64,000 bases of DNA, from assembly GCA_008632985.1 (NCBI GenBank), contig QPGO01000023.1:555681-619680 (forward strand). The letters run 5' to 3'. A program made the translations under genes and the position numbers. This stretch comes from Psammoneis japonica (taxonomy: Eukaryota). Numbering within the stretch: position 1 is the stretch's first letter; each line of letters opens with the position of its first letter. The notes below the pieces were generated by a model. That model was not told the origin of the DNA. It ran no database searches and saw nothing but the letters and a program-made list of their open reading frames with translations. Shown here piece by piece: positions 1-43,692 of the stretch.

Positions 1-1399
1 ATTTGATGGGATGACAATTCAACAGGACCCATCCAATGCCCATTGCCGACTGCATGGAGCAGTTTGGGCAACAGGGATTTGACTTCTTTTTTTGGTTCTT
101 GTGCGATCTCATTGCATGGGCCGCCAAACAACATGACGTCAAATTCGAAACGCAACATTGGCAGGGAAAAAAGTCATGGCATCCTCACATCTGAATCTGT
201 CTCACATCCACAACAGTTTGTCCTTTACTTCTTCTCCTCTTGATCAGTCACAGCCATGCCAGCAGCACAATGCGCTGTTGTCATCACATCTCTGAATGCT
301 GACAAACAGTTCTGCTGGAGATTTGCCGCAGCTTTCAGCAACGATCAATGATGTTTTCCAATCTGACCGAGACTGCTCCCTCCATCCTCAAAACCGTCTC
401 CTGCATCAATGACCGTGGCCTCTTCCTCTGATGCCATTGCAATGGCAATTCTTGCCATCTGCATGCCTGCCTCATGCCATCTCAATCCAGGCTTGCCCAT
501 GACGGTTCCACTGGACCAGCCTGACCCAGTCAACCAGTCAAAGTTCCTGGAATGCTTCCAAGTCCTCTCTGGGCTTTGCCATTTTTCAGGCTGGTGCTCG
601 TCCTTGGTCTGCAAATGTGAACGCCACCATCAGTTTTTTCATGCTCTCTGCAAAGACATGCTGTCACATGATGGTGCAATGCATGGTGCCAGCACACGAC
701 AACAACAATGGCAAATCCACAGTGTTGTCAGAAAGGGCAGAAGTCCACAAAATGCTCTGAAAACTCAGCAACACCGCAGAAACAGTTTGTCATGATTGGT
801 TTGTCTGTGCTGCTCTCTGAGAGAGGGATCTCGAATGGAATTTCGACAAGGCTGTCTTCACCAGCTCCAAGACAAAAGGCATCGTGCCCCACCATTGTGG
901 ATGTTAAAAGGATGGACAGGTGACACGAACTCTTGAATGGAGTTTCGATGAAGGGTGCCATGCACCATCACCACCTGTCCTTATGAACCTCGTGACGCAG
1001 CAAGTGCTTTTGAACAACCAAAACACTGAAGAAAACCAACGCATCATGAAGAACAAAAGTCAAACCGCGGGGCAATGGAAAATCTACGTCAAGCGTCAGA
1101 TTTGCACCGACAAAATTCAAAGACATGTTGTTCATGGAAACATCAAAGCAGAGCATGGATTACAAAGTTGGACGGATGCCCCACGTGATGTGGGGAAACG
1201 CCAACTGCCATTCAATTGTGTGAGATCAATGTGAAGTGCGCAACAGTTCGCAATTCCATGGGTGAATTTTTCTTCAGAGATGTACAGCATGCATCTCAGG
1301 GATGTCATTGGCATTGTTTGAGAACAATGGGTTTGAGCATGATGGAAAAATGCAAAAGTGGAACGAGAAAAACATTCATGGTGGTGAATTCTGGATCGC

Positions 1400-2560
1400 G
1401 GCAGATGGCTGTTGAGCATGCTGGTCACTGACCAGGTCGGATCGTCAACAGGACGCAGACTGAAGATTTTGCCAACACAGCTGGGGCTCTCAAACGGACT
1501 TCCAACAACTGGCATCTTAGCCACCTTGCGTGCCTTGGGCGTCTTGAATTCTTCAACATCATCAAGGTTGGCGTGGGCGCTGACCAGTGGAGGGCTCTCG
1601 AAAGGTGACTCAAAGAATGGTTTCTCCGCCGTTTCCTCCGCCTCTTGCATCTTGTGGTCTTCGACACGGACAGAATCATTGATGTGTCGAGGGCCATTGA
1701 ACACCTCGCCTGCAGCGGGATCACGTGCACTCACCAAAGCACGACTGGACAGAGCATGATGAACGTCAGAGGCTGGACGAATGCAGTTGACGAAGACAGG
1801 AGTCTTAACTTCTTCCTCAGCCTCATGCATCTCGAACTCCTCGCCCGCAGCGGGATCGCACACTTTCCTCATGCCTGCATGGTTCACCATCTCCTGCGCT
1901 TCGAGCATCTTGCATTCTTCAACCTCTTCAAGGACGAAGTGGTTGGCGCATCGAGGGCTCTCGAACACCTCCCCCGCAGCGGGATCGCACACTTTCACCC
2001 AAGCACGACCCGATTTGGAGCATGGCTGAACGCAGTTGATGAAGGCATTAGTGTCAACTTCTTTCTGGGCCTCGTTCATCTCGAACTCCTCACCTGCAGC
2101 GGGATCACGAACTTTCGCAAGAGAACTGCCTGCTTGATGTTCAGAGCTTCACGGACTGCCATTGAAGAATGCTGTCGACACCATTTCCCGCGCATCCTGC
2201 ATCTTGCAGTCTTCGACCTCTTCAAGGACAGACTCGTTGATGCGTCGATGGCCATCGAATGTCTCCCCCGCAGTGGGATCGCGTGCTTTCACCAAAGCAC
2301 GACCCGACAGTCCCTGATGAACTTCGGAGCGTGGCTGAACACTGTTGACGAAGACTGGCGTCTTCACTGCTTCCTGGGCCTTGTGCATCTCGAACACCTC
2401 GCCCGCAGCGGGATCGCGCACTTTCACCAAAGGACGACACAACTGATCCTTGTCGAATTCGACGGGTGGCGGAATGCAGTTGATCTGACTGTCGTTCACC
2501 TTCCTTTGTTTGTCATGGCCCTGAACAATTCCCCCGCAGCAGGCGGTCTGCACATTTGTG
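1400..2560 (-). repeat. Degenerate coding tandem repeat (KV[C/R]DPAAGEVFE motif, ~7 copies) downstream of the GcvT pseudogene
   Basis: GCAGCGGGATC-like core recurs near 1711, 1848, 1977, 2097, 2269 and 2405, degenerate near 2535. Minus ORFs 1132-2079 and 2149-2604 show repeated DPAAGE(V/E/T)F peptides. Confidence 0.8.
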
Positions 2561-3900
2561 AGGCTGGCTGTTGTGAGGAATCCTGCAGAAGCGAGTTTTG
2601 ACAAAGGCCGGCTTCACCACCTGGGTCTTGTGGAAACGTGCCCCCACATTTTCGTCCACTCGAACGCAAAGCAGCACGTTTGTGCCGGTCTTGGAGAACA
2701 CCGTTTTCACGCAAGCCATGGCAATGGACATGCTGAGGCAGGGACCAAATGCGGCCGACGTCACTTGACCTGCAATGATGCTTCCCGTCACATGAGCATT
2801 TCAGCGTTCTCCTCTGGGACCTCAGTCGGGCACACAATGCCTGCGAGCTTTCGTGTCACCTTCTGAAGCCTGCCATCTTTGGTGAGGATGCGATCAGCAC
2901 CCAAGAATCTACCCTCTAGACGTCTGCGACGTGGGACGGTCCAGCCCAAGCTGGCTTCAACAGGGTTCACCGATTCGCCCAACTCCTTGCCCTTGGCACA
3001 GAGACCTGCCTCAAGGCGGAGGGTGTTCAAAGTGGTCAAGCTTCCTGGCATCACGCTGGGGTCTTCCAAGAGTTTGGATGCAAGCAAGACAGCCGACTTG
3101 ACAGCAGGGATGTGAAGCTCAAAGCCATCCTCGCCTGCAAAGCCGCGTCTGCAACAAAAAAGACAATGAAAGTTGGCCAAGCAAGCGGCAGTTTCAATCG
3201 CACGTGATGATGTCGGCACGCAAAGCAAGTGCAGTTGTCATCCTTGCCGAGCAATGTGGTGAACTTCCGTGTCACCAAGAAGACAAGTTTCTTTGTTGGA
3301 CATGAACGCCACGCGTTCCAAGTCAAAGTCCGGTGGAAGCAGCTTCTCCATTGCAGAGGACGAGCCGGGACCTTGCAGGGCCAAGATGGAATGTTGAAAG
3401 CACTCCATTTCAACTTCGCCGCAGAGCAGTTCCAACTGCTTGTTGAAATGCTGTTCGCACCAGTCGTGAGTGGTCATGACAAAGCGATCTCCCACATTTT
3501 TGATGATCGCATCGTCGATGATCCCGCCTGTTTCATTCGTCATGACGGACAAGATGCACCTGCCACGTTCAAGAGAGGCAATGTCTCCTGCAAGAATTCT
3601 CTCCAGGAACTCAACGCAGTCTTTTCCACGCCAAGATGTCTTTTGTCAAAGAGCAAGCACATGGAAAACATGGTTCGATTTAGATTTCATGCAAGAAGCT
3701 GTTTGCAATCCTGCCGGTGCGGACGAGACATGATGAACACACCTGAATGAGAAAGGACAAATCAAAGAGCGCTGCTTTTCCTTCGGAACGGCAGTGAAGG
3801 TGCTCTTGGATGGGTTGGTCGAGGCCGTCACCAACAGACTTTCCCTCTAGCTTGGATAAAAAAGCTTCGTTAACGCACAACAACATTGTCCACTGGCTCC
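2560..3900 (-). pseudogene. gcvT: Glycine cleavage T-protein (aminomethyltransferase)-like pseudogene, intron-containing and TpA-depleted
   Basis: Motifs in order: AALFDLS, FLERILAGDIASL, SVMTNETGGIIDD, LALQGP, GEDGFEL, LRLEAGLC, PVEASLGW, GQVTS..FGPCL..SIAM. Broken into several frames, no Tyr codons, intron donor near 3742. Confidence 0.8.
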
Positions 3901-22671: not shown

Positions 22672-23321
22672 CCCCGCTCCCTGAATCGCGTGCATCGCGC
22701 ACGATGCACACCGATTCAGACCTCTCGTGCTTTTCCCCCGCCGAGCTTGAATCGGACTGACGGCATAAATCTTACAGTTAACACTAAGGTTGTTCCTCCC
22801 CGAAAGCGAAAAAGCGCCAAGTTCAACCGTTCTTATCGAAGCTGACATGCAAACATTGGGTATTTATGGCGGGAAAACTTGCGTAGCTTCTACGCGTGTG
22901 CACTGTGGGCGATGCACTTAGTAGGTTTCTACGTCTTTTCTACGTGTGAAATCGCCATAATTACCCGGATTTGCTTCCCTAACCCGGAAATGTTTCTAGA
23001 CAGTACAACGCGGTCGGAAGTTTTCGCGCCTTGTTATCGTGTTGTTGTCGCGTACTTTCCGAGTGGTAGTCAATGAAACAATTATTGGAGGACGAGCTGA
23101 GCCAATCAAACCCTAGAAAAACAGCATAAAGCACGTCAAGCGTAGTAGAAGACGAGGACGTGTTGATATTTATTAACAGAGGCTCTTGAAGAGACAAGTT
23201 TTAGCGATAAAGTAGTGCCAAAAAAGACGTCACGTGCATCGCACACGATGCACGTCAGCGATTTTGGGCGATTTTCTGAATTTCCCGTGTGCATCGTGCG
23301 CGATGCACACCGGGAGCGGGG
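22672..23321. mobile_element. piggyBac-type non-autonomous element (MITE), ~650 bp
   Basis: TTAA at 22668-22671 and 23322-23325 flank termini CCCCGCTCCC...GGGAGCGGGG. Subterminal palindromes GTGCATCG-N4-CGATGCAC at ~22690, ~23234 and ~23289. Confidence 0.85.
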
Positions 23322-23539
23322 TTAATGATGATGCAGTGAACAAAGTCTGCCTGTCGGTGGGTTGTTGGCGCCAATCTTGCTGGCGCCGAAGAGCGACAAT
23401 CGGCACATGTCTCAGCATGACGGAAGCCCGAGCGTGTTGCCAACAATGTGTGGCAGAGATGTCACTGGTAATCACAAGCCACTGAGAGTCGTCGAGCTCA
23501 ATCCGTGTGGCCATTTTTTTTTCTTCGCCATCCTGGCCT

Positions 23540-24925
23540 TTTCTCCAACAGCAGCAGACTTGAACTTCCCAACTCCAGCATGAGAGGATCCCATGAGATG
23601 AGACACCAAGCACCAACAACCTGACAACTGCAAGCTGAGGGTGCTGGTGGTTTCTGGTGGGCCCCAGGTGCAACTTTAAGAACTGCAACTGAGCATTTCA
23701 AGGTTTTTGCCGTGTGGCACTGTGTGGCCGTGTGGCCCCATCATGTCACCTTCTTGTCCCCACCAACACCCGCAGAGACTTGTTGATTTTCCCAACTCCA
23801 GAGTGTGATGATCCCTTGTGACAGTGCCAACCAACCCAACAACTGCAAGGTGAGGGGGCATTGGTGGTGTCCAGTGAACCCCAGGTGAAACGTCAAGGGC
23901 TGTGGCTGAGCGTTGCAAGGTTGGTCTTGTGGTGGTGTTGTGGCCCCGTGTCTCATGTTGTCCCCAACAGCAGCAGATTTGAGTTTCCAAACTCCAGAGT
24001 GCAAGGACCCCCTGACAGTGCCTGCCAACATGACAACAGCAAGCTGAGGACACTGGTGGTGACTGGTGATGGACCCCAGATGAGCCTTCAAGAGCTGTGG
24101 TTGGGCGCTGCAAGTTTGATCTTTTGGCATTGTGGCCCCACGACATCACCTCCTTGTCCCCATCAACCGGAGCAGACTTGAGTCTCTAACCTCCAGAGTG
24201 AGTGGACCCCATGATGGCACCAACAACAACCTGACAATGGCAAGCTGAGGGTGTTGTTGGCATCTGGTGTGCCCCAGATGTGACTTTAAGAACTGCCACT
24301 GAGTGTTGCAAGATTGAACTTGTGGTGCTGTGACGCCCCCATGTCATCTTGTCCCCAACAGCAGCAGATGTTGTTGCAAGGACCCCACCACAATGGCGCC
24401 AACCATCCTGACAACTGCAAGCTGGGGGCGCTGGTGGTCTCTGATGGATTCCAGGTGAGACTTTGACAACTGTGGCTGAGGGTTGCAAGGTTTGTCTTGC
24501 AGCAGTGTTGTGCCTCCACATGCCACCTTGTCCCAAAAAACAGAGGAGCAGACTTGAGCTTCTCAACTCCATGACAGCAAAAGGGTCGCATGTGGTGGCA
24601 CCAGCCAACCAGACAGCTGCAAGCTGAGGACAACACTGGCAGCATCTGGTGGACCACAGGCAACACTGTGGGAACCGTTGCTGCGCATTGCAAGGTTGAT
24701 TTTGTGGCATCGTGGCCCTGGCTGTGTCTCCTTGTCCCCAGCCCCAACAGCAGCAGACTTGACTTCCCCAACTCTGGCATGAAAGGACCCCATGACAGCA
24801 CCAACAAACCTGACAACAACAAGTGGAGGACACTGCTGGTGGTGTCTGGTGGACCCCAGGAGAGACTTTGGGAACTGTGGCTGAGTGTTGCAAGGTTGAT
24901 CTTGTGATGTTGTGGCCCTGTGTCA
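23540..24925 (-). repeat. Diverged ~200-bp tandem array, inverted relative to the 26.8-30.8 kb array
   Basis: Recurrent CAACAGCAGCAGACTTGA and ACAACTGCAAGCTGAGG motifs; the reverse complement matches CCCTCAGCATGCAGTTGT of the plus array. Confidence 0.8.
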
Positions 24926-25620
24926 CCTTTTCTCAAACAGCAAAAAAGACTGTGACCCACTCAACGGCTTGATTGATGAGTGGCAGTGTTTGAGCAAAGC
25001 TTCAAAAGGCAGTGCACCAGGAGCACCAGAGACATGGAGTTGTTTTGCATTGGCAAAATGTCTTGAGCAGAATGGAGAAATTTGCATTGTCACATTTGAA
25101 ACAAGCCTCTCTCTTTGTTGGAAGCAACAAAGAGACAGCTGCTGTGAACAGGCAACCCACCCATCTTTCATTTTATTCTGATCTAAAGTTCAAGCAAGAG
25201 CAGATCTCATTGGAGGATTGGTTGGGGTTTGAGTCAGAGATGTGAGGTTGAGCTCTTTGCTGGTTGCATGCTGCACAATTTTTTTGGCTTGCAGCCTCAC
25301 CAAGCTTTCCTGCCATGAGTTGTTGAGCAAGTTTTCATGGCCAATCTTGCTGATGACACAATTGTTTCAATGTGGCACCAAGTCTTCCATGCTGACCTTT
25401 GCACACAAAGTCTCAATGTCAGGCAAATTTTCTGTTGCCAAAGCCTTTGTTTCAACTGCCACTCATGCAGTCTGGGTCCTGGAGTCAGGTGTGCAAAGAA
25501 GTTGGTGCTGACACTTTGACATGCATGGCATCCAAGCAACCCTGCAATCTTTTGCAAGAGATGCAACTGGTGCATTCACAGATGACAAGAAAGAGCTGCA
25601 CAGACAGTGGACACAATTTC
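24735..25620 (+). repeat. ~0.9-kb segment duplicated in direct orientation at ~34027-34920
   Basis: Shared strings in the same order in both copies, e.g. CCCCAGCCCCAACAGCAGCAGACTTGACTT, TCAACGGCTTGATTGATGAGTGGCA, GATCTAAAGTTCAAGCAAGAGCAGATCTCAT, CAGTCTGGGTCCTGGAGTCAGGTG. Confidence 0.85.
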
Positions 25621-26789
25621 AAATTTGGAGAGCACCAGGAACAGAATGTTGAACAAGGACAGGATGGAAGAGAGCAAGGGAGAATGGCGATGGAGAAGAG
25701 TTTGAGGCACAAGAAATTCCATGAAGTGTGTTGATGAGCCTCTCACAAGGTTCTCATCAACACAATCATCTCTGTGTGTGGCTGACAAATTTGAGAAAGA
25801 TGGGTGCATCAGAACAAAGAGACTGGGCAGGAAATGGATTGTTGGCAAATGTGGTGCAAAAGGTGTCACATTCTGAAGATCGTCACTGTCTTGTTGAGAG
25901 TTGCAGAAGCTCCAGCAGGCAGTGCTCACCCCATGTGTGGCAAGGCAGAGCTCCCCTTTCCATTGGTGGTTGGCAAGAAAAAAGCCACTTGGAGATCAAT
26001 GTTTGGCTCTGCATTTGGGGCTGTGACGCCATTGTCATGTGCTTCATCAGGAGACAACAAGGATGAGGGATGCTCAGATGTGCAGACCCCAAGCAACAAC
26101 CTGCAATCATGTCAGGGGAAGGGATTTTTTGTGATGAGCACAGGTTGCAAGGCATGTGAAAGCACCACCCTGAAGGGAATGCCAGGCACCAGCTCTGGAT
26201 TTTTCCTGTGGCAATGTGCTGAGATCTGATGGCCCGTGCAGCTCAAGGGCATGCTGGACATGCTGCAAATGGTGTGTCATCTCTGGAGCTCAAGCAAGCC
26301 AACAAAGAACACACCAGCATGCTTTGTGCTTTGTGCAAGTGACAACAAAAAATCAACTGCCAATGTCATGGCATTTTCTTGTCAAAGAGCTTGAAGTCTG
26401 CTTGATCTACTTCCACTCACCTGAAATCTGCTCTGCTCGCATTTGCAAAAAAAACAAGCTCCTTGTGTCACCTTGTGCAAGAAAATCTGTTGTGGCCACA
26501 TGCACGTGTGCCAATGCGCAATGTAGAGCCTGTGAAGAGCAGGTTCATTGTCCCATGTTGTCACTGATTTTTGTGTTGTGAATTGCTGGCAACGTGACAA
26601 TTTGTTCCAATTTGAGCTTCCAAGTGGCTGGAGGGGGCAGGGGTCACAGCAACCCACAAAGAACCACACACACAGAATCCGTGCATGTTTTTGTGCTGCT
26701 GTGCAATGGATGATTCTGAGGTGTTCATGCTGCACGAGAAAGGAGGAAAAGGTCTGCTGCGTGCATGGTGTGTGAATCTTTTTTTTGTC

Positions 26790-29700
26790 ACCACAGTTCT
26801 CTCAATGTTCCCTGGGTTCCATCAAAGACCCCCAACACTGCGATCAGTCTGCAGCTGGTGTGTTGGCAGGCCATGCCAGTTTGTCCTTTCACTCTGGAGA
26901 TGGAAGAGTTTGAAGTCTCACTCTCTTTTCTGGCTGGGTGATGAAGAAACTTGGCTTCAGCCACACACAACTGCACCAGATGGGCCTTGCAGTGCTCAAC
27001 CACAGCTCTCACAGTGTTCCACAGTTTCCACCAGAGTCCACCAACATTCTCAGTCTGCAGATGATGTCTTTGTTGGTTGTGTCATTGTTTGCTTTTTTGC
27101 TCTCTGGAGTTGTGAGCCCCAGCTCTGTGATGGGCCATGCGATGGGCATTGCAGCACTCAACCACATTTCTCAAAGCACTCCCTGGGCTTCACCAGAGAC
27201 CATCATCATTGCCCTCATCTTGCAGTTGTTGTGCTGATCAATTGCACATCAGGGTGTCCTTTCCCACTGAAATGTGGGAATTTCAATTCTGGCTGTGGCA
27301 TGAACAAAACAACTGCTGTTTGCTGCTGCAAAAGATGTGTGTGCAACACTCAAGCAACCACATTTCTCAAAGTGTTTCTCTTCCCCTGGAAGAGACCTTA
27401 AAGTCTCTCAGCCTGCAGTTGTTGGGTTGTTTGGTTGCACTGGGATGTCCCATCCCATCACACTGGAGTCAGGAATTTCAGCTCACTCTTGCATCGATGA
27501 AGTGACTTGGGGTGCAATTGCAGCCAATGAGCCATGCAACTCTTGTCTGCTGTTCTCATGTTGCTCCCCAGACAACCCTGGGGACCTTTGATGGCCTCAA
27601 ACTGCACTTGTTTGTTTGGTTGGTTGCACCAGTGTGTGTCCTTTCACTCTGCAGCAGTTGGAATTTCAGGTCTCACTCTGGCATGCACTCAGTGAGTGGG
27701 GGCTGCATCTGGACCACATGTGTGTTGTTGCAACACTCTGCCACCAACCTCAATGTCTTCTTGGGTTCCATTTGAGATCTTCAATGCTCTGAGTTTGCAG
27801 TTGTTTCATTGGTTTGTTGCACAAGGGTGTGCTTTCACTCTGGAGTCAGGAGTTTCAGCTCTCAATCTGGCACATGGATGAAGTGACAGGTGGCTGCAAC
27901 TGCACCAGATGAGCCTTCTTGCAACAATCCATCACCATTCTCAAAGCATTCCCTGGGTTCCTCTAAAGACCTTCAATGCCCTCAGCATGCAGTTGCTGGG
28001 TTGGTTGTTTGCATCAGGGTGTTCTTTCTCTGAGGAGTCAAAAGTTTTTCTGCTCAAACTCTGGCATTCAGCCAGTCAGTGCCTGGTGGTTGCAACTGGT
28101 CCAGATGGGCCTTGAAACACTCCACCGCTGTTCTCAAAATGTTCCCTGGGTTCTGTTTGACACATTCAATGCCCTCAAAATGCAGTTGTTGGCTTGGTTG
28201 TTTGCACCAGGGTGTTCTTTCACTGTGGATTTGGGAGTTTCTGCTCTCACCATGTCATGGATTAAGTGACTGCTGGCTGCAACTGCACCAGATCATGGGC
28301 CTTGCTGCAACACTCCACCACTGTTCTCAAAGTGTTCCCTGGGTTCCTTTGAAGACCTTCAATGCCCTCAGCATGCAGTTGTTGGGTTGGTTGTTTGCAT
28401 CAGGGTGTCCTTTCTCTGAGGAGTCAGGAGTTTTTCTGTTCTCACTCTGGCATGCATTGAGTGTCTGGTGGCTGCAACTGCACCAGATGGGCCTTGCAAC
28501 ACTCCACCACCATTTTCAAAGTGTTCCCTGGGTTCCTCTGAAGAACTCAAATGCCCTCACCATGCAATTGTTGGGTTGGTTGTTTGCATCTGGGTGTTCT
28601 TTCACTGTGGATTTAGAAGCTGCTGCTTCTGCTCTTGCCATGTCATGGACCAAGTGATTGGGGGCTGCACCTGCACCAGATGAGCCCTTCAACACTCCAC
28701 CATGGAGGATCTCAAAGTGTTCCCTGGGTTCCAACAGATGTCTTCAATGTCACAAGCATGCAGTTGTTGGGTGGGTTGATTTCATGAGGATGTTCTTTCT
28801 CTGAGAAGCCAGCAGGGGGTTTTCTGCTCTCACTGTGGCATGCACTCAGTGACTGGTGGCTGCAAATGCACCAGATGGACCTTGCAACCTTCCACCGCTG
28901 TTCCCAAAGCATTCTCTGGGTTCCTCTGAAGACCTTCAATGCTCTCTGCAAGCAGTTGTTGGGTTGGTTGTTTGCATCAGGGTGCTCTTTTTCTGAGGAG
29001 TCAGGAGTTTTTCTGCTCAAACTCTGGCATGCGGTCAGTGCCGGGTGGCTGCAAATGCACCAGATGGGCCTTGCAACACTCCACCACTGTTCTCAAAGTG
29101 TTCCCTGGGTTCCTCAGAAGCCCTTCAATGTCCTCAGCATGCAGTTGTTGGGTTGGTTGTTTGCATCTGGGTGTTCTTTCACTGTGGATGGAGGAGTTTC
29201 TGCTCTCGCCATGTCATGGATCAAGTGCTTCGGGGCTGCACCTGCACCAGATGAGCCCTTCAACACTCTGCCACTGTTCTCAAAGCATCCCCTGGGTTTC
29301 ATCAGAGACCTTCAATGCCGTGAGCATGCAGTTGTTTGGTGGGTTGGTTTCATGAGGATGTTCTTTCTCTGAGAAGTCAGGAGTTTTTTCTGCTCTCACC
29401 ATGTCATGGATTGAGTGACTGGTGGCTGCAACTGCACCAGATGGGCCTTGCAACACTCCACCACTGTTCTCAAAGTGTTTCCTGGGTTCCTCTAAAAACC
29501 TTCAATGCCCTCAGCATGCAGTTGTTTGCTTGCTTCTTGTTTGCATCAGGGTGTTCTTTCACTGTGGATTTTGGAGTTTCAGCTCTCACCATGTCATGGA
29601 TTGAGTGACTGGTGGCTGCAACTGCACCAGATGGGCCTTGCAACACTCCACCACCATTCTCAAAGCATTCCCTGGGTTCCTCTGAAGCACTTGCTTCAAT

Positions 29701-30790
29701 GCCATCAGCGTGCAATTGTTGGGTTGGTTCTTGGTTGCATCTGGGTGTTCTTTCATTGTGGATTTGGGAGTGTCTGCTCTCACCATGTCAAGGATTGAGT
29801 GACTGGGGGCTGCACCTGCACCAGATGAGCCCTTCAACACTCCACCACTGTTCTCAAAGTGTTCCCCAGGTTCCACTGGAGACTTTCAATGCCATGAGCC
29901 TGCAGTCACTGGGTGGGTGGGTTTCATGATGATGATCTTTCTTTGAGAAGTCAGGAGTTTTTTTGCTCTCACCGTGTCATGGGTCAAGTGACTGGTGGCT
30001 GCAAATGCCCAGATGTGTCTTGCAACACTCCACCACTGTTCTCAAAGTGTTCCCTGGGTTCCTCTGCAGACCTTCCATTCCCTCAGCATGCAGTTCTTGG
30101 GTTGGTTGTTTGCATCAGGGGGTTCTTTCACTGTGGATTTAGGAGTTTCTGCTCTCACCATGCCGTGGATTAAGTGACTGCTGGCTGCAACTGCACCAGA
30201 TGGGCCTTGCTGCAACACTCCACCACTGTTCTCAAAGTGTTCCCTGGATTTCTCTGAAGACCTTCAATGCCCTCAGCATGCAGTCATTGGGTTGGTTGTT
30301 TGCATCAGGGTGTTCTTTCTGTGAGGAGTCAAGAGTTTTTCTGCTCAAACTGCAGCATGCATTGAGTGCCTGGTGGCTGCAACTGCACCAGATGGGCCTT
30401 GCAACACTCCGCCACCCTTCTCAAAGTGTTCTCTGGGTGCCTCCAAAGAACTTCAGTGCTCTCAGCATGCAGTTGTTGGGATGGTTGGCTTGGTTGCATC
30501 AGGGTGTTCTTTCACTGTGGAGCGGGGGGTTTCAGCTCTCTCACTGTGGCATGGATCAAGTGACTGGGGGGTGCAAGTGCACGAGATGAGCCCTTCAACA
30601 CCCACCCCAAATTCTCAAAATGTTTGTTGGGTTCCATGTGAGACCTTCAATGCCCTCAGCCTGCAGTTGTTGGGCTGGTTGGTTGCATCAGGATGCTCTT
30701 TCACTTGTGGCTTTGTCTGGTGCAGCTGCACTGGGCAAGTCTTGCATCTCTCAATCACTGTTCTCAAGTGTTCTCTGGCTTCCTCATGGG
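26790..30790 (+). repeat. ~190-bp satellite-like tandem array, ~20 units, with higher-order variants
   Basis: CCTGGGTTCC...CTTCAATGCCCTCAGCATGCAGTTG recurs near 27951, 28144, 28337, 28526, 28722, 28914, 29103, 29290, 29481, 29670, 29864, 30053, 30242, 30431 and 30627; more degenerate copies extend back to 26811. Confidence 0.95.
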
Positions 30791-33399
30791 ATCAATGCTT
30801 TCAGAGAGAACTTTGGTGACAAACAGCCAAAGATGCTTGTGCTTTTTCTGTTTTTCTCCTGTGGCACAAACACATGAGATCATGCCATGCACACCAGTGC
30901 AGAAACCAGCGCAGATTCTGTGTGTTGATTTTGTTGGGTCGTTGTGACTGGTGATGTGTCACTTGGCTTCTTTTGTTTTCCCTGCTGAGGGAGTCATCTA
31001 AAAAAGACAATGGACAAGAAAGCCGCAACACAGCTCATGGACAAACAGTGCTGCAACGATGGAGTGTGAGATCCCAAGATCCACACTTTTGTTCAATTCC
31101 AACATTCATCTGCCGCAGTCCTCTGGAGCAAATGACGCAACATGCAATGCACTGCAGCGCACTGCACATGAGCACCAGTGGGTGCAGTGGAGAGAGAGAA
31201 TGCTGCACACAGCATGGCCGTTGGTTTGTTGCAACATGCTTCTGGCCATTGTTTTGCTTGGTTGATTGTTGTGTTGGTGAGGTGCTTCACTCAGTTCTTG
31301 AAGTGCACATGAATCCTCATGGAGCAAAGCACAGACTGTGCTGAGATTGCCTGCAGAAGAAATCTGCCAGAGATGAGGGAAAAAATCTGCTTGATTTTTT
31401 TTGTAAAATGGCCAAAATCTGCTTTGCTCGCCAGCTCTGATGTCGGTTTTTGAGTTTTTGGTGACACTTGCTTTGTGGCAAAATCTTGTCAAGGGCAAGA
31501 TTGTCAAAGTCTTGCAACAGCACACTTTTGTGTGATGTTTGCAGAAGGGCAGTGCACAGGCAATGGCTCAGCACACAGATCTTGAAGCATGCAAGCCTCT
31601 GATTTATTCTGGGGATGATGTCAGCACGTGAAGGAAGGTGAGGGCAGTGCTGCTGCTGAACAGACTGCAGCACCCGGCCCATTGCAGGTGGCTGACTCTG
31701 GAAAATGTGGTTGCTCTCACTCAGAATTGAAATTTGTTCAGCAAAATGCCTGTGTTTTCATCAAGCACTCCTTCATTGTGAACAAACTGATTTTGACTGT
31801 TGGCTGAATTGGCACAGCAGGAAACCAAACTTGAGGAAATTTGGTCTCACACAGTGCATGGTGGGCTCTTGACTGGATTTGTTTGAAACTTGCACTTGAC
31901 CACAGCACAACAATTGCAAATGTTGGAGTGTCAGTTGGCAACCAAACTGGCAAAATGGGAAACAACAATGAATGAAACATGGCTCCTTTCTGTGCACACA
32001 CGGCACACCCAAGTTGATCTCATCAATTTTTGTTGTTCATTGGCTGGAGTGCACTGACAACTTGAATTGCTCATTTGCCAACTGGTGTGCATTTTGCAGT
32101 TTTGGTTTCCAACAATGTTTCATTTCCATCCTGGCAATGTTTGACATGTTTGGTGCATGCTCTCATTTTCCCCATGCTGCCACTCCATTGCCTTTGCTCC
32201 CTCTCTGTTCTAAGAGCCACCGCTTCACTCCATTGTCTGTCTCATTGTCTCTCACATCTTGGTGTTCTTGCAGAGCTGGCTTTTGTGACAGCTTTTCATT
32301 GTGAGACACAACAGCAATCCCTGGCAAAAGAAGGCAGAGAAGTCATCAGTTTGGCATGATGTTGCCTTTGGCAAGTGTCACAAGAGTGCTGATTTTCTGC
32401 CTGCCTGTGTGCAACATTGCAGTGCTTTGTTTCTTGTCCTTGGCTGTTTTTGTCAATTTGGTGTCTGAGTTTCAAGAAACAAAGAAAGTGCAAAATGCAA
32501 GCATTGGCTTGTTTTGTTTGCTGTGGGCTGTCTCCTCCCACATCACACTTCTGACCTTTTGCCTTTAAAGTGGCTTTTCTTTGTGTTGGCATGTGCAGAC
32601 TTTTGGTTTTTGTTGGTGCCTTCCTGCAATGCCGTTGTTGTTTGTGTGCTGCTTGGGCTCATTCTGTGTTTTTATGTTGTTTTGTGTGGTGCTGGCAATG
32701 TGCCTTTTTGCCATGGAGCCAAGCCAGCAGTCCCAGCAAACATTGCCTGTGACATTTTGCAAGTGGTCATTCTTAAAAAAAATGGCCTTTTGTCGCACTT
32801 GTTTTAAAAGTTTTAAGTTGTGTTTGAATCAACTCAAATGAGTCTTCACATCGGTTTTTTCATGTGAGCTCTCTCATTTGGCAGCTGGATGTTGAGCAAA
32901 TGTTTCAATCAGATGTGGCCGCACATCTGTTTTTGAAAAAGATTGAAGTCCAAGTTTTCATGATCTCTCAACCAGCTCTTGTCAAGAATGAAATTTTTGC
33001 ATCTTTCTTGCTGCTTGTGCTGGTCCATTCAGCTTGTTTGTTTGTTTGTTTGTTTGTTTGTGAGCTGCTGCTGCAGCTCTGATCTTTGCAGCTGACCCAC
33101 ATGTGCACAACAACCTTGTTGCTGTTGCGCTCTCATTGTGGTTGAAGAAACTTGCAGCCAGGCAGGAGGTCAGAAGAGGTCATGGAGTTGGTCATGCAGG
33201 TGGCCACAGATGGGAGCTGGTTGAGCAAGAAGCCAACCAGGTCAGCCCCACCACGGCACCAAACACACGCCCAAAAGCTGCAAAGAGCCAGAGCAGCAGC
33301 CCCCCCCAGAGACATGGGGGCATGATGCTGCAGCTGCAGCACCTCCAGCCAACATTCCTGCTCCCCAACAAGCAGCCACCCCCATGCCAATGTGGTCAT

Positions 33400-34920
33400 G
33401 TGCTGTTGTGGCCCCATGTCACCTTGTCACCAGCAGGTTGGTGCAGGCTTGAGCTTCCCAACTTCAAAGTGAAGTGACCACATTGAGCAGAGCAAGGATG
33501 GCATTGCTTTTGTGCAGTTGTGGCACCCCATCATGCCCTCCCAGCCAAAAGTGCATGCTTCAATTTTCAAACTCCAAACTCCAGCAGAATGAAAGGGCCA
33601 CTTGATCATGGGTGGTGCTGCTGGCCAACCTGACAACAGCAAGTTGAGGGCATTGGCATTCTCTTGTGGAGACCCCAGGTGACACTGCAAAAAAGCTGCA
33701 GTTGAGCAGTGCAAGGTGTGCACTGCATTGTGGTTGTTGCCCAATGTCACCTTGTGCCAACAGGAGGAGCAGAAATGAGCTTCACAGCTCTGCAGTGTGT
33801 GAAAGGAACATCTTGTGGTGCCAACCAACCCAACAGTTGCAAGCTGAGGACACTGACAGCATCTGGTGGTTCCCAGGCAACACTTCAAGAACTGTGGTTG
33901 TTCCTTGGGCATTGCAAGGTTGATCTTGTTGTTTGCTGTCACCCAATGTCATGCTGTCTCCAAACAGCAGCAGACTTGCATTTCAAACTCTCTAGAGTGA
34001 AATGACCCATTGTGATGGCACCAACCCCAGCCCCAACAGCAGCAGACTTGACTTTCATCCTGACTCCAGTGTGAAAGGACCCCATGACAGCACTGACAAG
34101 CCCAACAACAGCAAGCAAAGGAAACTGACAGTGTCTGGTGGACCCCCCACAGGAGAGACTTTGGAAACTGTGGCTGAGCATTGCAAGGTTGATCTTGTGT
34201 TGTTGTGGCCCTGCATCACCTTTTCCCAAATGGCAACAGACTGTGGACTGGCTCATTCAACGGCTTGATTGATGAGTGGCAATGGGTGAGCAAAGCTTCA
34301 AAAAGCAGGTGCACTGGGAGTGCCAGAGACGTGGAGTTGTCATGCAGTGGGGGGGGGGGGGGGGAGAGCAAAATGTCTTGAACAGAATGGAGAAATTTGT
34401 GGTGGCATTTTTGAAACAACAAGCCTCCTCTCTTTGTTGGAAGCAATGAAGAGCTGCTGTGGACAGGCAAGCCATCCTCCATTTCATCCTGATCTAAAGT
34501 TCAAGCAAGAGCAGATCTCATGGGACGATTGGCTGCTGGGATGATGTGAGTCAGGAATGTGAGGTTGAGCTTTGTTGATTGCACACCACACAATTTTTTT
34601 ATGGACTGTCAGCCTTGCCAAGCTTTCCTGACATGAGTTGTCAAGTGAGGCTTCATGGCCAATCTCGTTGATGACACAGTTGTTGCAATGTGGTGGCGCC
34701 AATCATCCATGCCAACCTTTGCACAAAGTCTCAACATCAAGCAAGTTTTCTGTTGCCAAAGCCTTTGTTGTGCAACTGCCACTTGTGCAGTCTGGGTCCT
34801 GGAGTCAGGTGCATGGAGAAATGGGTGCTGGGCACTTCAACAAGCATGGCATCCAAACAACCCTGCAATCTTCTGCAAGAGACAACAAGGAAGAGCTGCA
34901 CAGACAGTGAACACAATTTG
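33400..34920 (-). repeat. Second minus-orientation array plus second copy of the 24735-25620 segment
   Basis: Same unit motifs (CAACAGTTGCAAGCTGAGGACACTG, GCATTGCAAGGTTGATCTTG) followed by the duplicated unique segment. Confidence 0.75.
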
Positions 34921-37384
34921 GCATCAACTGCGGCAGAAATCTGATGCCACAGGCAAAAACATGTGAGCACAGATTGCAAAGAAAAACACAAAATTGAACT
35001 GTGCAGACATGTGGTCCCCAATGACTTGGCACCCCAAAAAGTGTTTGTGGCATGTTCATTGTCAATCAACAGCTCCAAATTTTTGGCTCTGAATGAAGTG
35101 CAGATTGACCCACACTGTGACCTGGGTTGACGTTGGAACACATCAAATTGTGATTTGATGACAAGGGCCAATTGGTTGATGAGCATTTTTTGTGGCAACA
35201 GGAAGCACCAATGATGAAACTGATTGAATGATCAGACATGGACATTGCATCAACTGCTTGACATTTTGTGAGCTGGGCTCTGGAGTGCAAATTGACACAG
35301 GACAGAAGAAGAAAAGGGCTTGAGTTTGCAGCTGTGTTGTGTCTGTCAAAAGAGGGGTTGGTTTGGTGAGTTTGAATGGAGAGTCTTTTCATTGTCATGT
35401 CAGACATGTGATGAGGACACAGTGGCTTGCAACAGGGGCACACCATTGTCCAGAGACAAATGCAGCAGAAATGCAAAAAAAAAACATGCTGTGGGCAATT
35501 CATCAAGCTGAAGCTCTTTCAAACAAATGAGTTGACTCTGAATGAGATGATGTGCTGCAAAACAAACAACAACACAAAACCTTAAAAAAATTGGATGTTG
35601 ACCCAAATGGCAGCTTTTGTGCAATGCCAGATTTGTGAGACTGAAAATGAGTCAGTTTCAAAACATTGTTCAGAGCTGCAACTTGCAGTGCACCTTGGTT
35701 GATCTTTCAAAAATTGCAACACCTGCAGAGAGTGCAGTCACAGGTGCAAAAGTTTTATTTCTCTTGTCAATTGATCATCTCATCAAGAGTGAAAACATGT
35801 CACAGACTTTGCTCTGGTTGGCAAAATGCCCTGCAATCAGGGTCTTTTGCCAGATCAAAAAAATTGGGTGCCAGTTGGAGTGAGCAAATGTGATGGATGA
35901 AGGAAAATGCCCATGATGGGGTCCAGGCAGGTGTTCTTGCCAAGCAAAAAAGACGCATGAAATTGGGGAAGTGGCATCATCTGACTTTCTGTGCACTTCT
36001 CTGCATGACAACCTTGACATCATGTGATGCCATGGGGGGCCACCACAAAGTGTGGTGAGCTGTGCTCTCTGTTCTCCAGCAAATTCTTTTGTTGATGCCT
36101 GGAAATCCCATGTCTTTTTTTGCCAAGTTGGCAACAAGCATGACATTCAATGACTTTGATCTAGTTGGCAGGATCATGAAAATTAGGCCACTGAGAGGAC
36201 AGTCAAAATTGACACAGTGCGGTGCCCACACATGTCTGTTTTAAAGCCTTGCTCAACCTCTCACAATGGAGGCACAGAGAGAGCAGAAGAGACAGCAGGT
36301 TCAAGTTGGTTTGTGTGTCAGGTTGAGGAGCTGTCCATGTTGACCTCATCAGCTCACAGGCAGCTCAAGTCAATGGCACATGACATGTGACAAGTGTTTT
36401 GTGGCTCATCTCTGCCAAATTCTTGGGCCCATGCTTTCTCAACTCTTTGTGCTTTCTTCTCTCCTGAGTGGTCTCACTGTCATTGCTGCCAAGAAGCCAG
36501 GGAGCAGTGCTGTCATCTCCCTGGCCATGCACCCAGCAGCACAGCTCTTGTTGACAAAAGGAAAGAGCTCTCACACAGCCAAGAGACCCCCACATCGACA
36601 CTTCTTTCTGGATGAGAAAGAGTGGCTTCATCATCTGGTGGGGTGACTCCTTTTTTGTGGGGTGCACCAGTGCTCAGTTCCAAAACAAGGGGGGAGCACT
36701 TTGCATGTGATGGGAACATCTTGCTCCGACTTCACGGTGTCAGCCATGCACCTCTCTGCAGCCTGACATTGCTCTGCTGCAAAGAGGTCATGAAATTTCA
36801 TGATGTGCAGCTTTGCCAGCATTTTTTCACAAGTGCACCGCTGGTGCCTGGTGCTTTGCAGAATTCCCCCCCCCCCCCCCCACTTGTGCTGTTCCCAGCA
36901 TGCTTGTCCAGCATTTCCTGAGAGACAAGCCTCCTCGTGCCATGCAAGCTGTCAGTTTGTTGTTGCGACAAGCTTCTTTTTTCCAAAATGTCCCTGCATC
37001 AGGGATGAGGAGGGGGGGACATCGGCCGGTGAGCAACATCCACTGACAACAGTTTTTGTTCTGCATGGGAGCACTTCTTTGAGTTTCTTGAAAAACTGAA
37101 GCTTTGGATCTGCCCACGTTTCATCGCCATTCTTTTCTTGTTTCTCACAGCATTCTTGGTTGTCAGCCATTTCTTGGAAGTGTTGTGCACAGGCACCTCT
37201 TTGCCACAGGAGTTGGAGCAATGGATCTGGGCAGGCAACAATGACACAGAAGCCTGTGCCCCACCTTTTGCACAGTTTGAATGGACAGACGAGCAAGAGA
37301 TCGAGTTTTTTAAATGAACCCTCTCTCTAGAGAGCAGACTGCTGTAGATTGTCGGCGCTGCCAGGAACTTCTTGTGTCTGTATA

Positions 37385-39479
37385 CTACGAATTCGGAAAC
37401 AATTGCGCGTTTTCCAGCGCGAAGGTCGAATATCGCGCCTGAACCGACGATCGGCGCTTCGCGCAAAACTCATGTAGAAATACGTAGAAAACATACTAGA
37501 GCTAGAACTCCAGAACGGAGAAAATCATCTGAATGGTGCGCGTATCATCACAATGATGTTGTTGCGTCCCTTCGTGAGCGTTTCTTACTACCATGCCACC
37601 CACAAAGAGACGAAAGCATTGTGTTCCTGCTCAAGCACCTGGAGATACAGTGACTCATCCGTCTAGTGGTGGCACTAGAGGCTATTCCCAGGCTCAACTT
37701 TTTTCCGGAGAGGTTTCTGGAGATGACGCCCGCGCCGACCCATACTCGGCCTTGTTTGAGCTATTCTTGATCGTTTTTGTTCATTGAAGACATGTCTTTT
37801 ACTTTTAGGAGGTATAATTGATAGGTGAGACCCTTGGTTTGGTGAGAAACGGAGTAGTCGTTGTGTAGAAATCAAAAAATGGGTCTTTTCCATTTTTGGG
37901 CGGCAAAACCCATACTTTGATGTTATTTCGTTCAATACACCTCCTCTGTTGCCTCCCATTGCTGTTATCTCTTTATTATAGATACGAAAAGTATCCCCTG
38001 TCTTGGGTATGCTGTGTGTATGATCTGTGGCGAGAAATATTGCTCACATTCGTGTGGTCTCGCATCGGCATTTTGAGACTACCACCGACCCATACTTTGA
38101 TGTTTATTCGTTCATTTGGTCTCTTTACTCTCACTTCTTTGATCGAATCTTTACTTTATAGTTGTGGTAGCATCATTCTGTCTTGGAAGCACAATAAATC
38201 CAACAAGAAATGCCAAGCAGAGGTTACAGTATGGTTGACGCGTCCACAGACGGAAAAGCACTGATGTCGCACCGACAAATGCTGACGAAGATAATCGAAT
38301 TCCTATCGACAATATCGAAGTCGGAAGTACTGGCAACACATCAAACGATTCATCCTGTGATTCCTCCACTCATGATTTTCTAGTGAACGCGCTGACATTG
38401 TAAAACATGAGGATTGTAGTCAGCACTCGACTCTCGGATACACGAACAGCCGAGGAGCATGATGCTACCAATGAAAATGGGGGAATACTAGCTTCAGATA
38501 ATAGAAGAATTGTTAGGTGTCACCATTCTATTTTATGATTCTATTAGCAGTAGTATCCAACAGACTAGACTAACGGGAAAAGCGCATTCTCTGCAAGCGA
38601 GGAGAAGGCGTCGGCACATGGCACATGTCGCAGTTGGTTTTATCGATGAATACTTCTTGCCACAGCTCGCACCCACAGCAAATTCAAGACAGAACGATAC
38701 TACCACAACTATAAAGTAAAGATTCGATCAAAGAAGTGAGAGTAAAGAGACCAAATGAACGAATAAACATCAAAGTATGGGTCGGTGGTAGTCTCAAAAT
38801 GCCGATGCGAGACCACACGAATGTGAGCAATATTTCTCGCCACAGATCATACACACAGCATACCCAAGACAGGGGATACTTTTCGTATCTGTGATAAAGA
38901 GATAACAGCAATGGGAGGCAACAGAGGAGGTGTATTGAACGAAATAACATCAAAGCATGGGTCGTGACCATTCCTGATTATCCGGTCAATCCAGTCAATG
39001 TGACAGTGCAATGTTTCTCACCACAGATCGAATACACAGCATGACCAAGACAGTGAGTACCTTTCATATCTATAATAGAGAGACACCAGCAATCGCAGGC
39101 AACAGAGGAGGTGTTTTTAACGAATAAAGATCAAAGCATGGGTTTTGCCGCTCAAAATTGGAAAACACCCATTTTTTGATTTCAACACAACGACAACTCC
39201 ATTTTTCGCCAAACCAAGGGGCTTACCTAACAATCAGACCTCCTAAAAGTAATATCCATGTCTTCAATGAACGAAAACGATCAAGAACAGCTCAAACAAG
39301 GCCGAGTCTGGATCGGCGCTGCGCTATGTAAAAAAAAATCCACGCTCCAGGAAAAAGTCTCTCTCTAGTATGTTTTCTACGCATTTCTACACAAATCTTG
39401 CGCGAAGCTCCGATCGTTGCTTCGGGATGAAAATTTGAGCTTCGCGCACGAAAACGCGCAATTGTTTCCGAATTCGTAG
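37385..39479. mobile_element. Foldback-type non-autonomous DNA transposon with ~800-bp modular inverted arms and TA target duplication
   Basis: TA|CTACGAATTCGGAAACAATTGCGCGTTTT ... AAAACGCGCAATTGTTTCCGAATTCGTAG|TA. Arms ~37385-38185 and ~38685-39479 are reverse complements around a ~500-bp spacer; no transposase ORF. Confidence 0.9.
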
Positions 39480-39665
39480 TAAAACAAAGCACTCGATTAT
39501 TGTTTCCGTCTCAATCTCCCAATGCTGTCTGCGCGTCCGTTAGGCATTCGTGACCAACTCCGCCGCGCTTCGAATCAACGTCGTACAATTCTACGCAGAT
39601 TCTACGAACCTCCAAACCGCCAAAGCGGCCACGACTTATTAGCACTCGGCACACAAAGAGCGACC

Positions 39666-42285: not shown

Positions 42286-42681
42286 GATGAAATGTAGAGT
42301 TAATCTAGGTGAGCTACCGGTACTGTCTTGGAACAAGCGCGAACGGACACGACACAAACATGCCATGGCTGATGGCAGCGGCAGATGCAACACCTACTTG
42401 CTTTTGACACCACCCTCCTGCTCCGCTGCCTTCCACCTTTTTTCTCTCTCTTTTTTGAAAATTTGATGCGTGCGGACCTGCACGACGCTACGAGTATCGT
42501 AGTACCGTGGTACGTAGAAACGTACGTGGCGCTGACGTAGACGGGCGAGAAGAACGTTGACGGGCGGCGGGCCAGACGTAATTATTGTACAGACTGCGTG
42601 CCTGCTCGCGATAATTGTCTGCGCAGATTTTTGATTTTTGCAACTTTCATTTTTTCGCGTTTTCTCTTGCACGCCATCGCC

Positions 42682-43692
42682 ATGGCGGTGTCCCGATTGG
42701 ATGGCTTTTGTCGATATGCCTTTGCGGTTCAGTATCATGGTGCTCCGTTTCTAGGATTCTCATACCAGCAAAACCAAGAAGACTGTATTTTAGAGGATGG
42801 TACCGATTGGAGAGGAGTGTTTTCTGTCGAGGGACGGATTCGAAAAGCGCTCTGTCAACTGGTTGGGCCTGACAATTATGAAAATATTCAAGTATCGTCG
42901 AGAACGGATCGGGGAGTTCATGCCTTGAGGAATACATGTCATGTCGATATTCGTCCTCGAAAGCCACAGCACGACGAGTGGGAATCATGCAATCTCCACC
43001 ATGGCTTGAACTATCACTTGTCACGACATGTTGGAAGAAGAGATTCTCGAGGAAACGATCCGTGGTATTTGGGACAACAAAATGATACTATTCGTATTCT
43101 ATCCGTTGCCAAGGCCCCGCATTTCATGAAGAATAGGTTTTATGGGCAAGACTCAAATCAACCAGAAACAATTGATTGGAATGCACGCTTCAGTGCTACC
43201 CAACGTACCTATGTTTACCGAATCCTCAATTTGATAAATGGAGAGCGAGACGACGCTGTGCCTTTTGAATGGGACAGATCGTGGAGAATCAATACAAATG
43301 ATCCATTAAACATTTCGGCAATGAAACAAGCTGCATCCTATTTGATCGGGATGAATGATTTCACCACTTTTAGAAGTTCCAAATGCCAACGACTGTCGCC
43401 GATTGTCACTATACAAGATGTGCAAATATCGAATCAGCCATATGATGTAGGAATGTTTGCTCACAAGCCATCCGATGCGTGTCTGGTCAATATATGCATT
43501 ACGGGTGACGCGTTCTTGTACCGCCAAGTTCGAAACATGGTGGGGCTTCTTGTAACAGTTGGGAGCAATAAATTGGATGCGGATGCGGTCGCGGAGCTCT
43601 TGGAGAAACGCGATCGCACCAAGGCCCCAGCCATGGCTCCGGCCCGTGGACTATTCTTGACCAATGTCAAGCATGGAGATTTCATCTTTTGA
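42682..43692 (+). CDS. truA: tRNA pseudouridine synthase A (TruA/Pus family)
   Basis: YHGAPFLGFSYQ, SSRTDRGVHA, ARFSATQRTYVY, NDFTTFR, GDAFLYRQVRNMVG, APARGLFL. Confidence 0.93.
   Translation: MAVSRLDGFCRYAFAVQYHGAPFLGFSYQQNQEDCILEDGTDWRGVFSVEGRIRKALCQLVGPDNYENIQVSSRTDRGVHALRNTCHVDIRPRKPQHDEWESCNLHHGLNYHLSRHVGRRDSRGNDPWYLGQQNDTIRILSVAKAPHFMKNRFYGQDSNQPETIDWNARFSATQRTYVYRILNLINGERDDAVPFEWDRSWRINTNDPLNISAMKQAASYLIGMNDFTTFRSSKCQRLSPIVTIQDVQISNQPYDVGMFAHKPSDACLVNICITGDAFLYRQVRNMVGLLVTVGSNKLDADAVAELLEKRDRTKAPAMAPARGLFLTNVKHGDFIF

Follow-up and report, generated by a model that had tools for sequence, protein, structure and literature searches.

The use of targeted regional hypermutation for genome defence is known from fungi alone, with cytosine as its target. 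In repeat-induced point mutation (RIP), C:G pairs are changed to T:A at CpA, which creates TpA and makes the DNA AT-rich. The locus described here lies in a diatom, within a 64,000-nucleotide stretch of DNA (hereafter the window) from Psammoneis japonica (assembly GCA_008632985.1, contig QPGO01000023.1, positions 555,681 to 619,680 of the forward strand). It consists of a 14-kb block from which the dinucleotides TpA and CpG (TA and CG below) have almost vanished, together with a second region at the start of the window where mainly TA is missing. We judge it rather probable that both record a persistent A:T>G:C hypermutation at TpA, plausibly enzymatic, confined to a chromosomal domain and, in the block, overlaid on CpG decay.

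Dinucleotide counts, given as observed/expected ratios (o/e) and compared with the flanks, delimit the block and a zone at its left edge as follows.

23530..37290, no strand: core block, TA and CG both depleted, with a matching surplus of TG/CA and a GC content of 0.488
23214..23529, no strand: left edge zone, TA lost and CG kept (2 TA against about 13 expected; 26 CG, o/e 1.15)

The core holds 31 TA (o/e 0.03) against 563 expected from the flank density (flank TA o/e 0.59), and 84 CG (o/e 0.10) against 758 expected (flank CG o/e 0.98), with CA and TG at o/e 1.93 and 1.75. A first-pass annotation of the window had reported roughly 30 TAs in 14 kb, few CGs with an excess of TG/CA, and a left edge where TA is already scarce and CG persists; the counts bear out all three, the wider span 23330-37290 holding 32 TA. 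In 1-kb steps, the interval of ~23.5-37.3 kb shows TA o/e of 0.02-0.08, CG o/e of 0.03-0.19 and TG and CA o/e of 1.5-2.2 each, and most of the window lies at TA o/e 0.43-0.77 and CG o/e 0.77-1.36. The longest TA-free gap measures 1224 bp within the block versus 288 bp outside both TA-poor regions, and at both block edges the composition switches within 100 bp. Since GC content is nearly that of the flanks (0.488 versus 0.477), the block is invisible to GC scans, and standard GC or RIP-index scans would miss such a footprint; the RIP-type indices, block versus flanks, are 0.05 versus 0.63 for TpA/ApT and 1.92 versus 1.23 for (CpA+TpG)/(ApC+GpT). The scarcity of TAA and TAG stops leaves stop-to-stop open reading frames (ORFs) of 90-260 aa throughout the block on both strands (71 ORFs of at least 90 aa, e.g. 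at 23676-24960), where gene prediction would probably yield spurious proteins devoid of tyrosine. No credible Pfam match was obtained for the 67 block ORFs among the 96 stop-to-stop ORFs of at least 70 aa scanned in the window, and no Rfam family or tRNA was found in the block.

The sequence lost from the block reappears in it as TG and CA, the deficit of 532 TA and 674 CG (1206 in all) being set against a TG+CA surplus of 1140 (95%). This mass balance, the TG<->CA flips between repeat copies and the replacement of tyrosine by cysteine in a gene relic, both described below, support a change that would run from TA to TG or CA. The repeats that allow copies to be compared, and the unique sequence beside them, are listed below; copy number was estimated from one public read run, platform not on record (X1), whose contigs were built from exact 31-letter words.

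23537..24947, minus strand: 189-bp satellite, array 1, older diverged copies (nhmmer)
26790..30804, plus strand: 189-bp satellite, array 2 (nhmmer; Tandem Repeats Finder period 189, 16.2 copies, 76% matches)
33395..34230, minus strand: 189-bp satellite, array 3 (nhmmer)
24953..25619, plus strand: non-satellite duplicated segment, copy 1 (purine/pyrimidine-collapsed k-mer search and blastn)
34249..34886, plus strand: non-satellite duplicated segment, copy 2 (same alignment as copy 1)
35963..37290, no strand: block tail, apparently single-copy and equally depleted (X1 summed word depth 56-104)

The satellite gave 36 nhmmer hits, 28 of them near full length, and array 2 includes 16 fairly homogeneous monomers at 27604-30660. 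The satellite period equals exactly 63 codons. One copy of the duplicated segment carries a run of ~16 G at ~34330-34350, which the other copy lacks near 25060. Over 30700-35962 the X1 summed word depth is 150-2600, versus ~65 for single exact contigs, and this part of the block therefore has diverged copies elsewhere in the genome. Depletion is equal across the satellite, non-satellite and single-copy parts of the block, the tail alone holding 3 TA (o/e 0.04) and 11 CG (o/e 0.13).

Comparison of the satellite copies, which the first-pass annotation had put forward as a check on the direction of change, was informative. Counted over all sequence pairs of the 28 monomers, TG<->CA double differences number 1634; six other double-transition classes yield 196-319 each, and CG/TA yields 1. 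At 19 column pairs, at least 3 monomers have TG and at least 3 have CA; several of these columns retain one or two TA or CG, which would be the expected ancestor, although whether TA or CG is usually ambiguous. In the 16 young monomers, positions with consensus TG or CA show double transitions in 23/655 cells (3.5%) and single transitions in 10/655 (1.5%), versus 8/2251 (0.36%) and 222/2251 (9.9%) at the other 12 dinucleotides. Singles are thus ~6x rarer and doubles ~10x commoner at TG/CA, which points to short-lived TA and CG intermediates and is the opposite of what selection against TA and CG would give. The duplicated non-satellite pair aligns with 592 matches and 149 mismatches (100 transitions and 49 transversions), including 22 TG<->CA double differences. 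The loss thus arose by mutation, in situ.

Furthermore, the same pair provides a clock. With its non-flip divergence (56 transitions and 49 transversions over 741 sites) taken as the measure of time, ~180 new TAs would be expected since the duplication had TA been stable; 31 are present, so that the process continued after the duplication and has persisted beyond repeat amplification. Equilibrium arithmetic, rough because the monomers are related and gene conversion is ignored, puts the loss of TA at ~50-100x and that of CG at ~20-30x the ordinary transition rate. Relatives that had escaped mutation were sought by blastn and by a purine/pyrimidine-collapsed k-mer search, which within the window gave only block-to-block matches and none to DNA of normal composition. 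In run X1, 825 contigs of at least 80% likeness were recovered as related copies; among the matches listed, the changes were A>G 107, T>C 128, G>A 103 and C>T 105, with transversions at 28-38 each, and no excess of A/T-ward changes was seen among them as TA-bearing master copies would give.

A second TA-poor region, absent from the first-pass observation, offers a protein-coding sequence in which the direction of change can be followed.

1..3680, no strand: second TA-depleted region, running off the window start, CG largely kept (11 TA, o/e 0.05; 173 CG, o/e 0.71)
1135..3756, minus strand: glycine-cleavage T-protein-like gene relic (Pfam GCV_T 5.8e-17 and 2.9e-18, GCV_T_C 1.9e-9)

CG o/e is 0.41 in the first kb of this region and 0.75-0.85 thereafter, and a deficit of 140 TA and 30 CG (combined 169) stands against a TG+CA surplus of 158. 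The relic, the only Pfam match in the scan of 96 ORFs, is damaged by a 1-nt frameshift near 2790 and by in-frame TGA stops. It contains an intron-like segment of ~99 nt at ~3149-3247 (minus strand), which starts with GCAAGG and ends with a pyrimidine tract and CAG; we speculate that the GCAAGG donor may be a canonical GTAAG changed by TA>CA. Its closest relative in the protein collection, P0121, shares 58% identity over 280 aa in the catalytic part (tblastn with P0121). The tail of the relic (1135-2148) has at least 4 copies of an RDPAAGE(E/V)FE motif, for which no Pfam family was matched, and the P0121 tail likewise has RDPxxGExFE repeats. Across 320 aligned codons the relic has no Tyr codon. 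An alignment of 74 T-proteins has 215 columns in which 80% or more of the sequences agree, and the relic keeps 123 of these, yet none of the 8 conserved tyrosines; the three of these that P0121 retains are all Cys in the relic. Counting every P0121 tyrosine aligned, 4/5 are Cys in the relic; at the remaining site the relic has Val, in line with the family consensus. The exchange of Tyr for Cys indicates that the change ran from TAY to TGY (Y, pyrimidine; R, purine).

The TAs that remain are not a random sample. Within 23330-37290 the 32 survivors comprise 23 YTAR (TTAA 11, CTAA 7, TTAG 3, CTAG 2), the others being TTAT 5, GTAA 2, CTAC 1 and GTAG 1, with no RTAY. Most sit at YY-TA-RR junctions, e.g. 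TTTAAA and CTCTAAAG. When survival is taken as the frequency of each tetranucleotide relative to the flanks, it falls from 0.59 for TTAA to 0.23 for CTAA/TTAG, 0.07 for CTAG, 0.06 for ATAA/TTAT, 0.025 for CTAC/GTAG and 0.014 for GTAA/TTAC, and is 0 for ATAT, ATAC/GTAT, ATAG/CTAT and GTAC. A multiplicative model fits these values, with one factor per flank, which for the base before T is about 0.77 (T), 0.30 (C), 0.08 (A) and 0.02 (G). In the core, YTAR makes up 23/31 survivors versus 5.0 expected (chi-square p 8e-18), and versus 7.6 expected if the TAs had newly arisen from TG/CA (p 5e-10). The bias toward YTAR and the absence of RTAY (0 versus 9.7 expected), both noticed in the first pass, therefore hold once NTAN frequencies inside the block are normalised to those outside. 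Since satellite copies are not independent, the test was repeated on non-satellite block DNA only, where YTAR accounts for 12/20 versus 3.2 expected (binomial p 1e-5); in region 1-3680 it accounts for 5/11.

CG shows the opposite flank preference: in the block, YCGR is the most depleted context (11 versus 180 expected) and RCGY the least (24 versus 166 expected), whereas RTAY is the most depleted TA context. Because of these opposite preferences and of the zones where TA alone is lost (23214-23530 and 1-3680), TA loss and CG loss are separable, in agreement with the two superimposed processes postulated in the first pass. The CG half, a CpG deficit with a TpG/CpA surplus as in methyl-CpG decay, is presumably ordinary CpG>TpG/CpA decay via 5-methylcytosine.

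We picture the block as a repeat island within a nuclear chromosome of a diatom, with three satellite arrays, an internal duplication and sequence that has copies elsewhere. Two region-restricted, heritable transition processes would have acted on it and probably still do. One would be the CpG decay just mentioned; diatom transposons are CpG-methylated (PMC9998398). The other, independent and stronger, would turn TpA into TpG or CpA on either strand, fastest at RTAY, slowly at YTAR and most slowly at TTAA; it would extend from a few hundred bases to several kb beyond the CpG-depleted zone, and would thereby have rewritten the T-protein-like gene from Tyr to Cys. The sharp domain limits and a rate raised 50-fold or more argue for an agent directed to chromatin or DNA over a genome-wide bias. 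An enzyme is a plausible agent; it would be recruited to silenced repeat chromatin and act on the DNA itself, and our leading guess, which has the simplest chemistry, is that adenine would be deaminated to hypoxanthine and read as G. A more specific version, which we put forward tentatively and regard as possible at best, is a mirror image of RIP in which a recruited factor would deaminate DNA adenine at 5'-TA-3', preferring TAY, in silenced repeats; repeats, and genes caught at their borders, would then lose TpA, stop codons and Tyr codons, and cytosine methylation would play no part in this. Two candidates can be named, neither of which provides evidence of action at the block. Stramenopile-restricted, uncharacterised nucleic-acid deaminases exist, among them deaminase-SAM-Tudor proteins that are predicted to work with RNA interference (PMC3239186), and they make an enzyme conceivable. 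Many diatoms carry DNMT4, which is of no known function and is related to RID, the fungal enzyme of RIP (PMC9998398); RIP requires a cytosine methyltransferase of this RID/DNMT4 type.

Several points weigh against this proposal. The evidence base is a single 64-kb window, and run X1 may be the assembly's own data, in which case the read support would not be independent. The Tyr>Cys evidence comes from only 4 sites, a small number. A dependence on DNA stacking or structure could give the same YY-TA-RR bias as recognition by an enzyme. TA is self-complementary, and an A followed by Y on one strand is a T preceded by R on the other, so that survivors alone cannot separate the two. The products could in principle do so: in non-satellite block DNA, YTGY+RCAR show a surplus of 254 versus 77 for YCAY+RTGR, in favour of TAY>TGY, but CpG decay with a YCG preference gives the same bias, and in region 1-3680, where little CG was lost, the counts are 40 versus 42, without bias. 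The first-pass idea of an A>G process preferring TAY is thus upheld for the context bias and not for the choice between TAY and R before T. Moreover, repetition as it stands today is neither necessary for depletion, as the single-copy tail is depleted, nor sufficient, as a high-copy repeat to the right of the block is spared. An element within this repeat adjoins the right edge of the block:

37383-39481: nested inverted-repeat (foldback-like) element, 2.1 kb, with arms of 278 nt (98% complementarity), 312 nt (86%) and 124 nt (84%)

The repeat (37348-39500) has normal composition (TA o/e 0.67, CG 1.06), with a summed word depth of 226-2222 in run X1 across 37348-39000; the element itself reaches 2222 in X1 and 1951 in a further run, X2. 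Finally, deamination of adenine in DNA is not known for any naturally occurring enzyme of eukaryotes.

Among the alternatives, a sequencing or assembly artefact, for instance modified bases misread as G or T, would dispose of the whole footprint, and the only run containing the region is of a platform not on record and may be the assembly's own data. Its contigs nevertheless reproduce the block: X1 contains 88% of the words sampled from 30800-38800, and exact-word contigs (depth 45-74) agree with the sequence over stretches of 0.3-1.6 kb. There are 3 differences in 30898-32454 and none in 33399-34817 (5 gaps), in 35270-36881 (1 gap) or in 36866-37384, which has no gaps and crosses the right edge of the block. 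Run X2 matched in 7/30 bins, mostly in the right-flank repeat, and a third run, X3, in none; no RNA run was found among the public runs listed as containing the sequence. Misreading per strand would furthermore mix TG and CA at every site and break contigs, and the relic and the repeat copies have diverged as in ordinary evolution, transversions and transitions being about equally frequent. Since the X1 contigs reproduce the sequence, a read or assembly artefact is unlikely, and we give it almost no credence. The explanation in which we place the least belief is hyper-editing of RNA by an ADAR- or ADAT-like A-to-I enzyme followed by copying of the transcripts back into DNA. It would account for A>G with a 5' T/U neighbour, which ADARs prefer. 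The two strands are about equally affected, however (CA o/e 1.93, TG 1.75), the domain spans satellite arrays in both orientations, the duplication and unique DNA, and the relic retains its intron-like segment, so that retro-copied edited RNA is disfavoured. Selection keeping TA and CG out, for example through a structural or binding need of a satellite or centromere-like region, would suit so extreme and sharply bounded a depletion on a satellite whose 189-bp period is close to the nucleosome repeat length. We hold it to be very improbable: selection would block the path from TG to CA, yet double changes are ~10x more frequent there than at other dinucleotides; satellite, non-satellite and single-copy parts are equally depleted; and in the relic protein coding was overridden, conserved Tyr becoming Cys.

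Two further readings accept the footprint as real. In one, it was made in duplication-triggered episodes resembling RIP, at rare sexual cycles, with leakage into the neighbouring DNA. Most of the examined part of the block is indeed multi-copy (X1 depth 150-2600 versus ~65 for single-copy sequence), ancestral TA and CG sites of the satellite and of the duplicated segment were resolved independently in each copy, and TA loss spreads into flanking unique DNA much as RIP leaks. To this may be added that diatom DNMT4 is related to fungal RID (PMC9998398). On the other hand, an adjacent repeat of higher copy number is untouched and the single-copy tail is fully depleted, flips go on in the young array, new TAs are far fewer than a long-finished event would leave, and the chemistry is the reverse of that of RIP. 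Episodes that recur are indistinguishable from a steady process, and to that extent this reading overlaps the one we favour; as a distinct account it seems to us unlikely, though it deserves to be kept in mind. In the other reading, which appears improbable, the target is not adenine deamination: thymine at TpA would be modified, adenine would be excised and C inserted opposite the resulting abasic site, or a repair polymerase would misinsert at TA. What the counts show is that A:T pairs at TA became G:C, on both strands, and not which base was attacked, and thymine could be oxidised to 5-hydroxymethyl- or 5-formyl-uracil, which can mispair with G. Dinoflagellate DNA has 5-hydroxymethyluracil preferentially at TpA, and errors of polymerase eta include A>G at WA motifs (W, A or T). 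A polymerase eta WA signature would deplete AA, however, which stands at o/e 1.26 in the block versus 1.15 in the flanks and disfavours that candidate; for the modified-base version, the literature search found no report of such bases in diatoms.

The flanking ORFs mark the window as diatom nuclear DNA. Their products are common housekeeping proteins of eukaryotes: HMG-CoA synthase, an ERCC4 nuclease, a GYF-domain protein, Vps4, a pseudouridine synthase, an exosome RNase PH subunit, phosphoglucomutase and a Y-family polymerase. For Vps4, the fragment shares 79-91% identity with diatom proteins, with Asterionellopsis glacialis (87%) as the best named match. A 247-bp tandem repeat at 43521-44247 (3 copies, 88% matches) has a normal TA and CG content; it overlaps the pseudouridine-synthase-like ORF (42598-43692) by the final 172 bases of that ORF and continues for ~555 bp beyond it. 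The ORF at 60895-61761 has an impB/mucB/samB (Y-family translesion polymerase) domain and lies 24 kb from the block, and no link to the footprint was found.

A search for comparable cases covered metagenome sequence and the literature. In 80 metagenome loci around Vps4 homologues (622 kb, of which only ~40 kb comes from close diatom relatives), no multi-kb TA-poor block was found; the only TA-poor 1-kb windows were in locus L024 and in the GC-rich locus L057. The former, at 17411-18231, is the only such window in the loci of moderate GC and reflects a 31-bp minisatellite whose unit simply has no TA; it is not comparable to the block. In the full-text literature searched, outside subscription journals, no account of a regional hypermutation that depletes TpA was found, be it for diatoms, for stramenopiles or for any other organism. 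If our proposal is true, a TpA-directed A:T>G:C process would be a second, chemically different instance of targeted regional hypermutation, in a distant and ecologically dominant lineage, and would show that CpG decay is not the only mutational signature that heterochromatin can bear. Such a process would also explain long spurious ORFs and tyrosine-free pseudo-proteins in diatom assemblies, and would point to a natural enzyme acting on adenine in DNA, of direct interest for base editing. Should the mirror image of RIP in particular prove true, it would rank as the first eukaryotic example of a natural DNA adenine deaminase system.

Each of the known systems shares some features with this locus. 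Polymerase eta, in the WA mutagenesis of somatic hypermutation, likewise changes A to G after T, but AA is not depleted in the block, and somatic hypermutation is neither germline-heritable nor domain-wide. A-to-I deaminases (ADAR, the fungal and tRNA enzymes Tad/ADAT, and engineered TadA editors) also change A to G with a 5' T/U neighbour, and T-A-C-like contexts, which resemble the hot TAY context, are favoured both in the natural substrate of TadA and by the base editors. The natural enzymes, however, act on RNA, on one strand and within the limits of a transcript, whereas here chromosomal DNA is changed on both strands over a contiguous domain; no gene of this kind was linked to the block. 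Methyl-CpG decay in methylated transposons, known from vertebrates and, as CpG-directed hypermutation, from some basidiomycetes, matches the low CG of the block (o/e 0.10), the TG/CA surplus and a mild YCG preference; it cannot account for the loss of TA, which is stronger, reaches further and has the opposite flank preference. The closest parallel is RIP of Neurospora and other ascomycetes, which is likewise a heritable transition hypermutation of repeat blocks. It too affects both strands, has sharp compositional edges, spills over into unique DNA next to the repeats and inactivates the genes that it reaches. With regard to the targeting of duplicates and the sparing of unique DNA, apart from short leakage, that characterise RIP, the families in the block are multi-copy, but its 1.3-kb single-copy tail is depleted and the higher-copy repeat at 37348-39500 is not. 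In contrast to RIP, TpA in the block is destroyed through A:T>G:C and GC is unchanged; RIP raises TpA/ApT and lowers (CpA+TpG)/(ApC+GpT), and here both indices are reversed; a neighbouring high-copy repeat is spared; and the host is a diatom, not a fungus.

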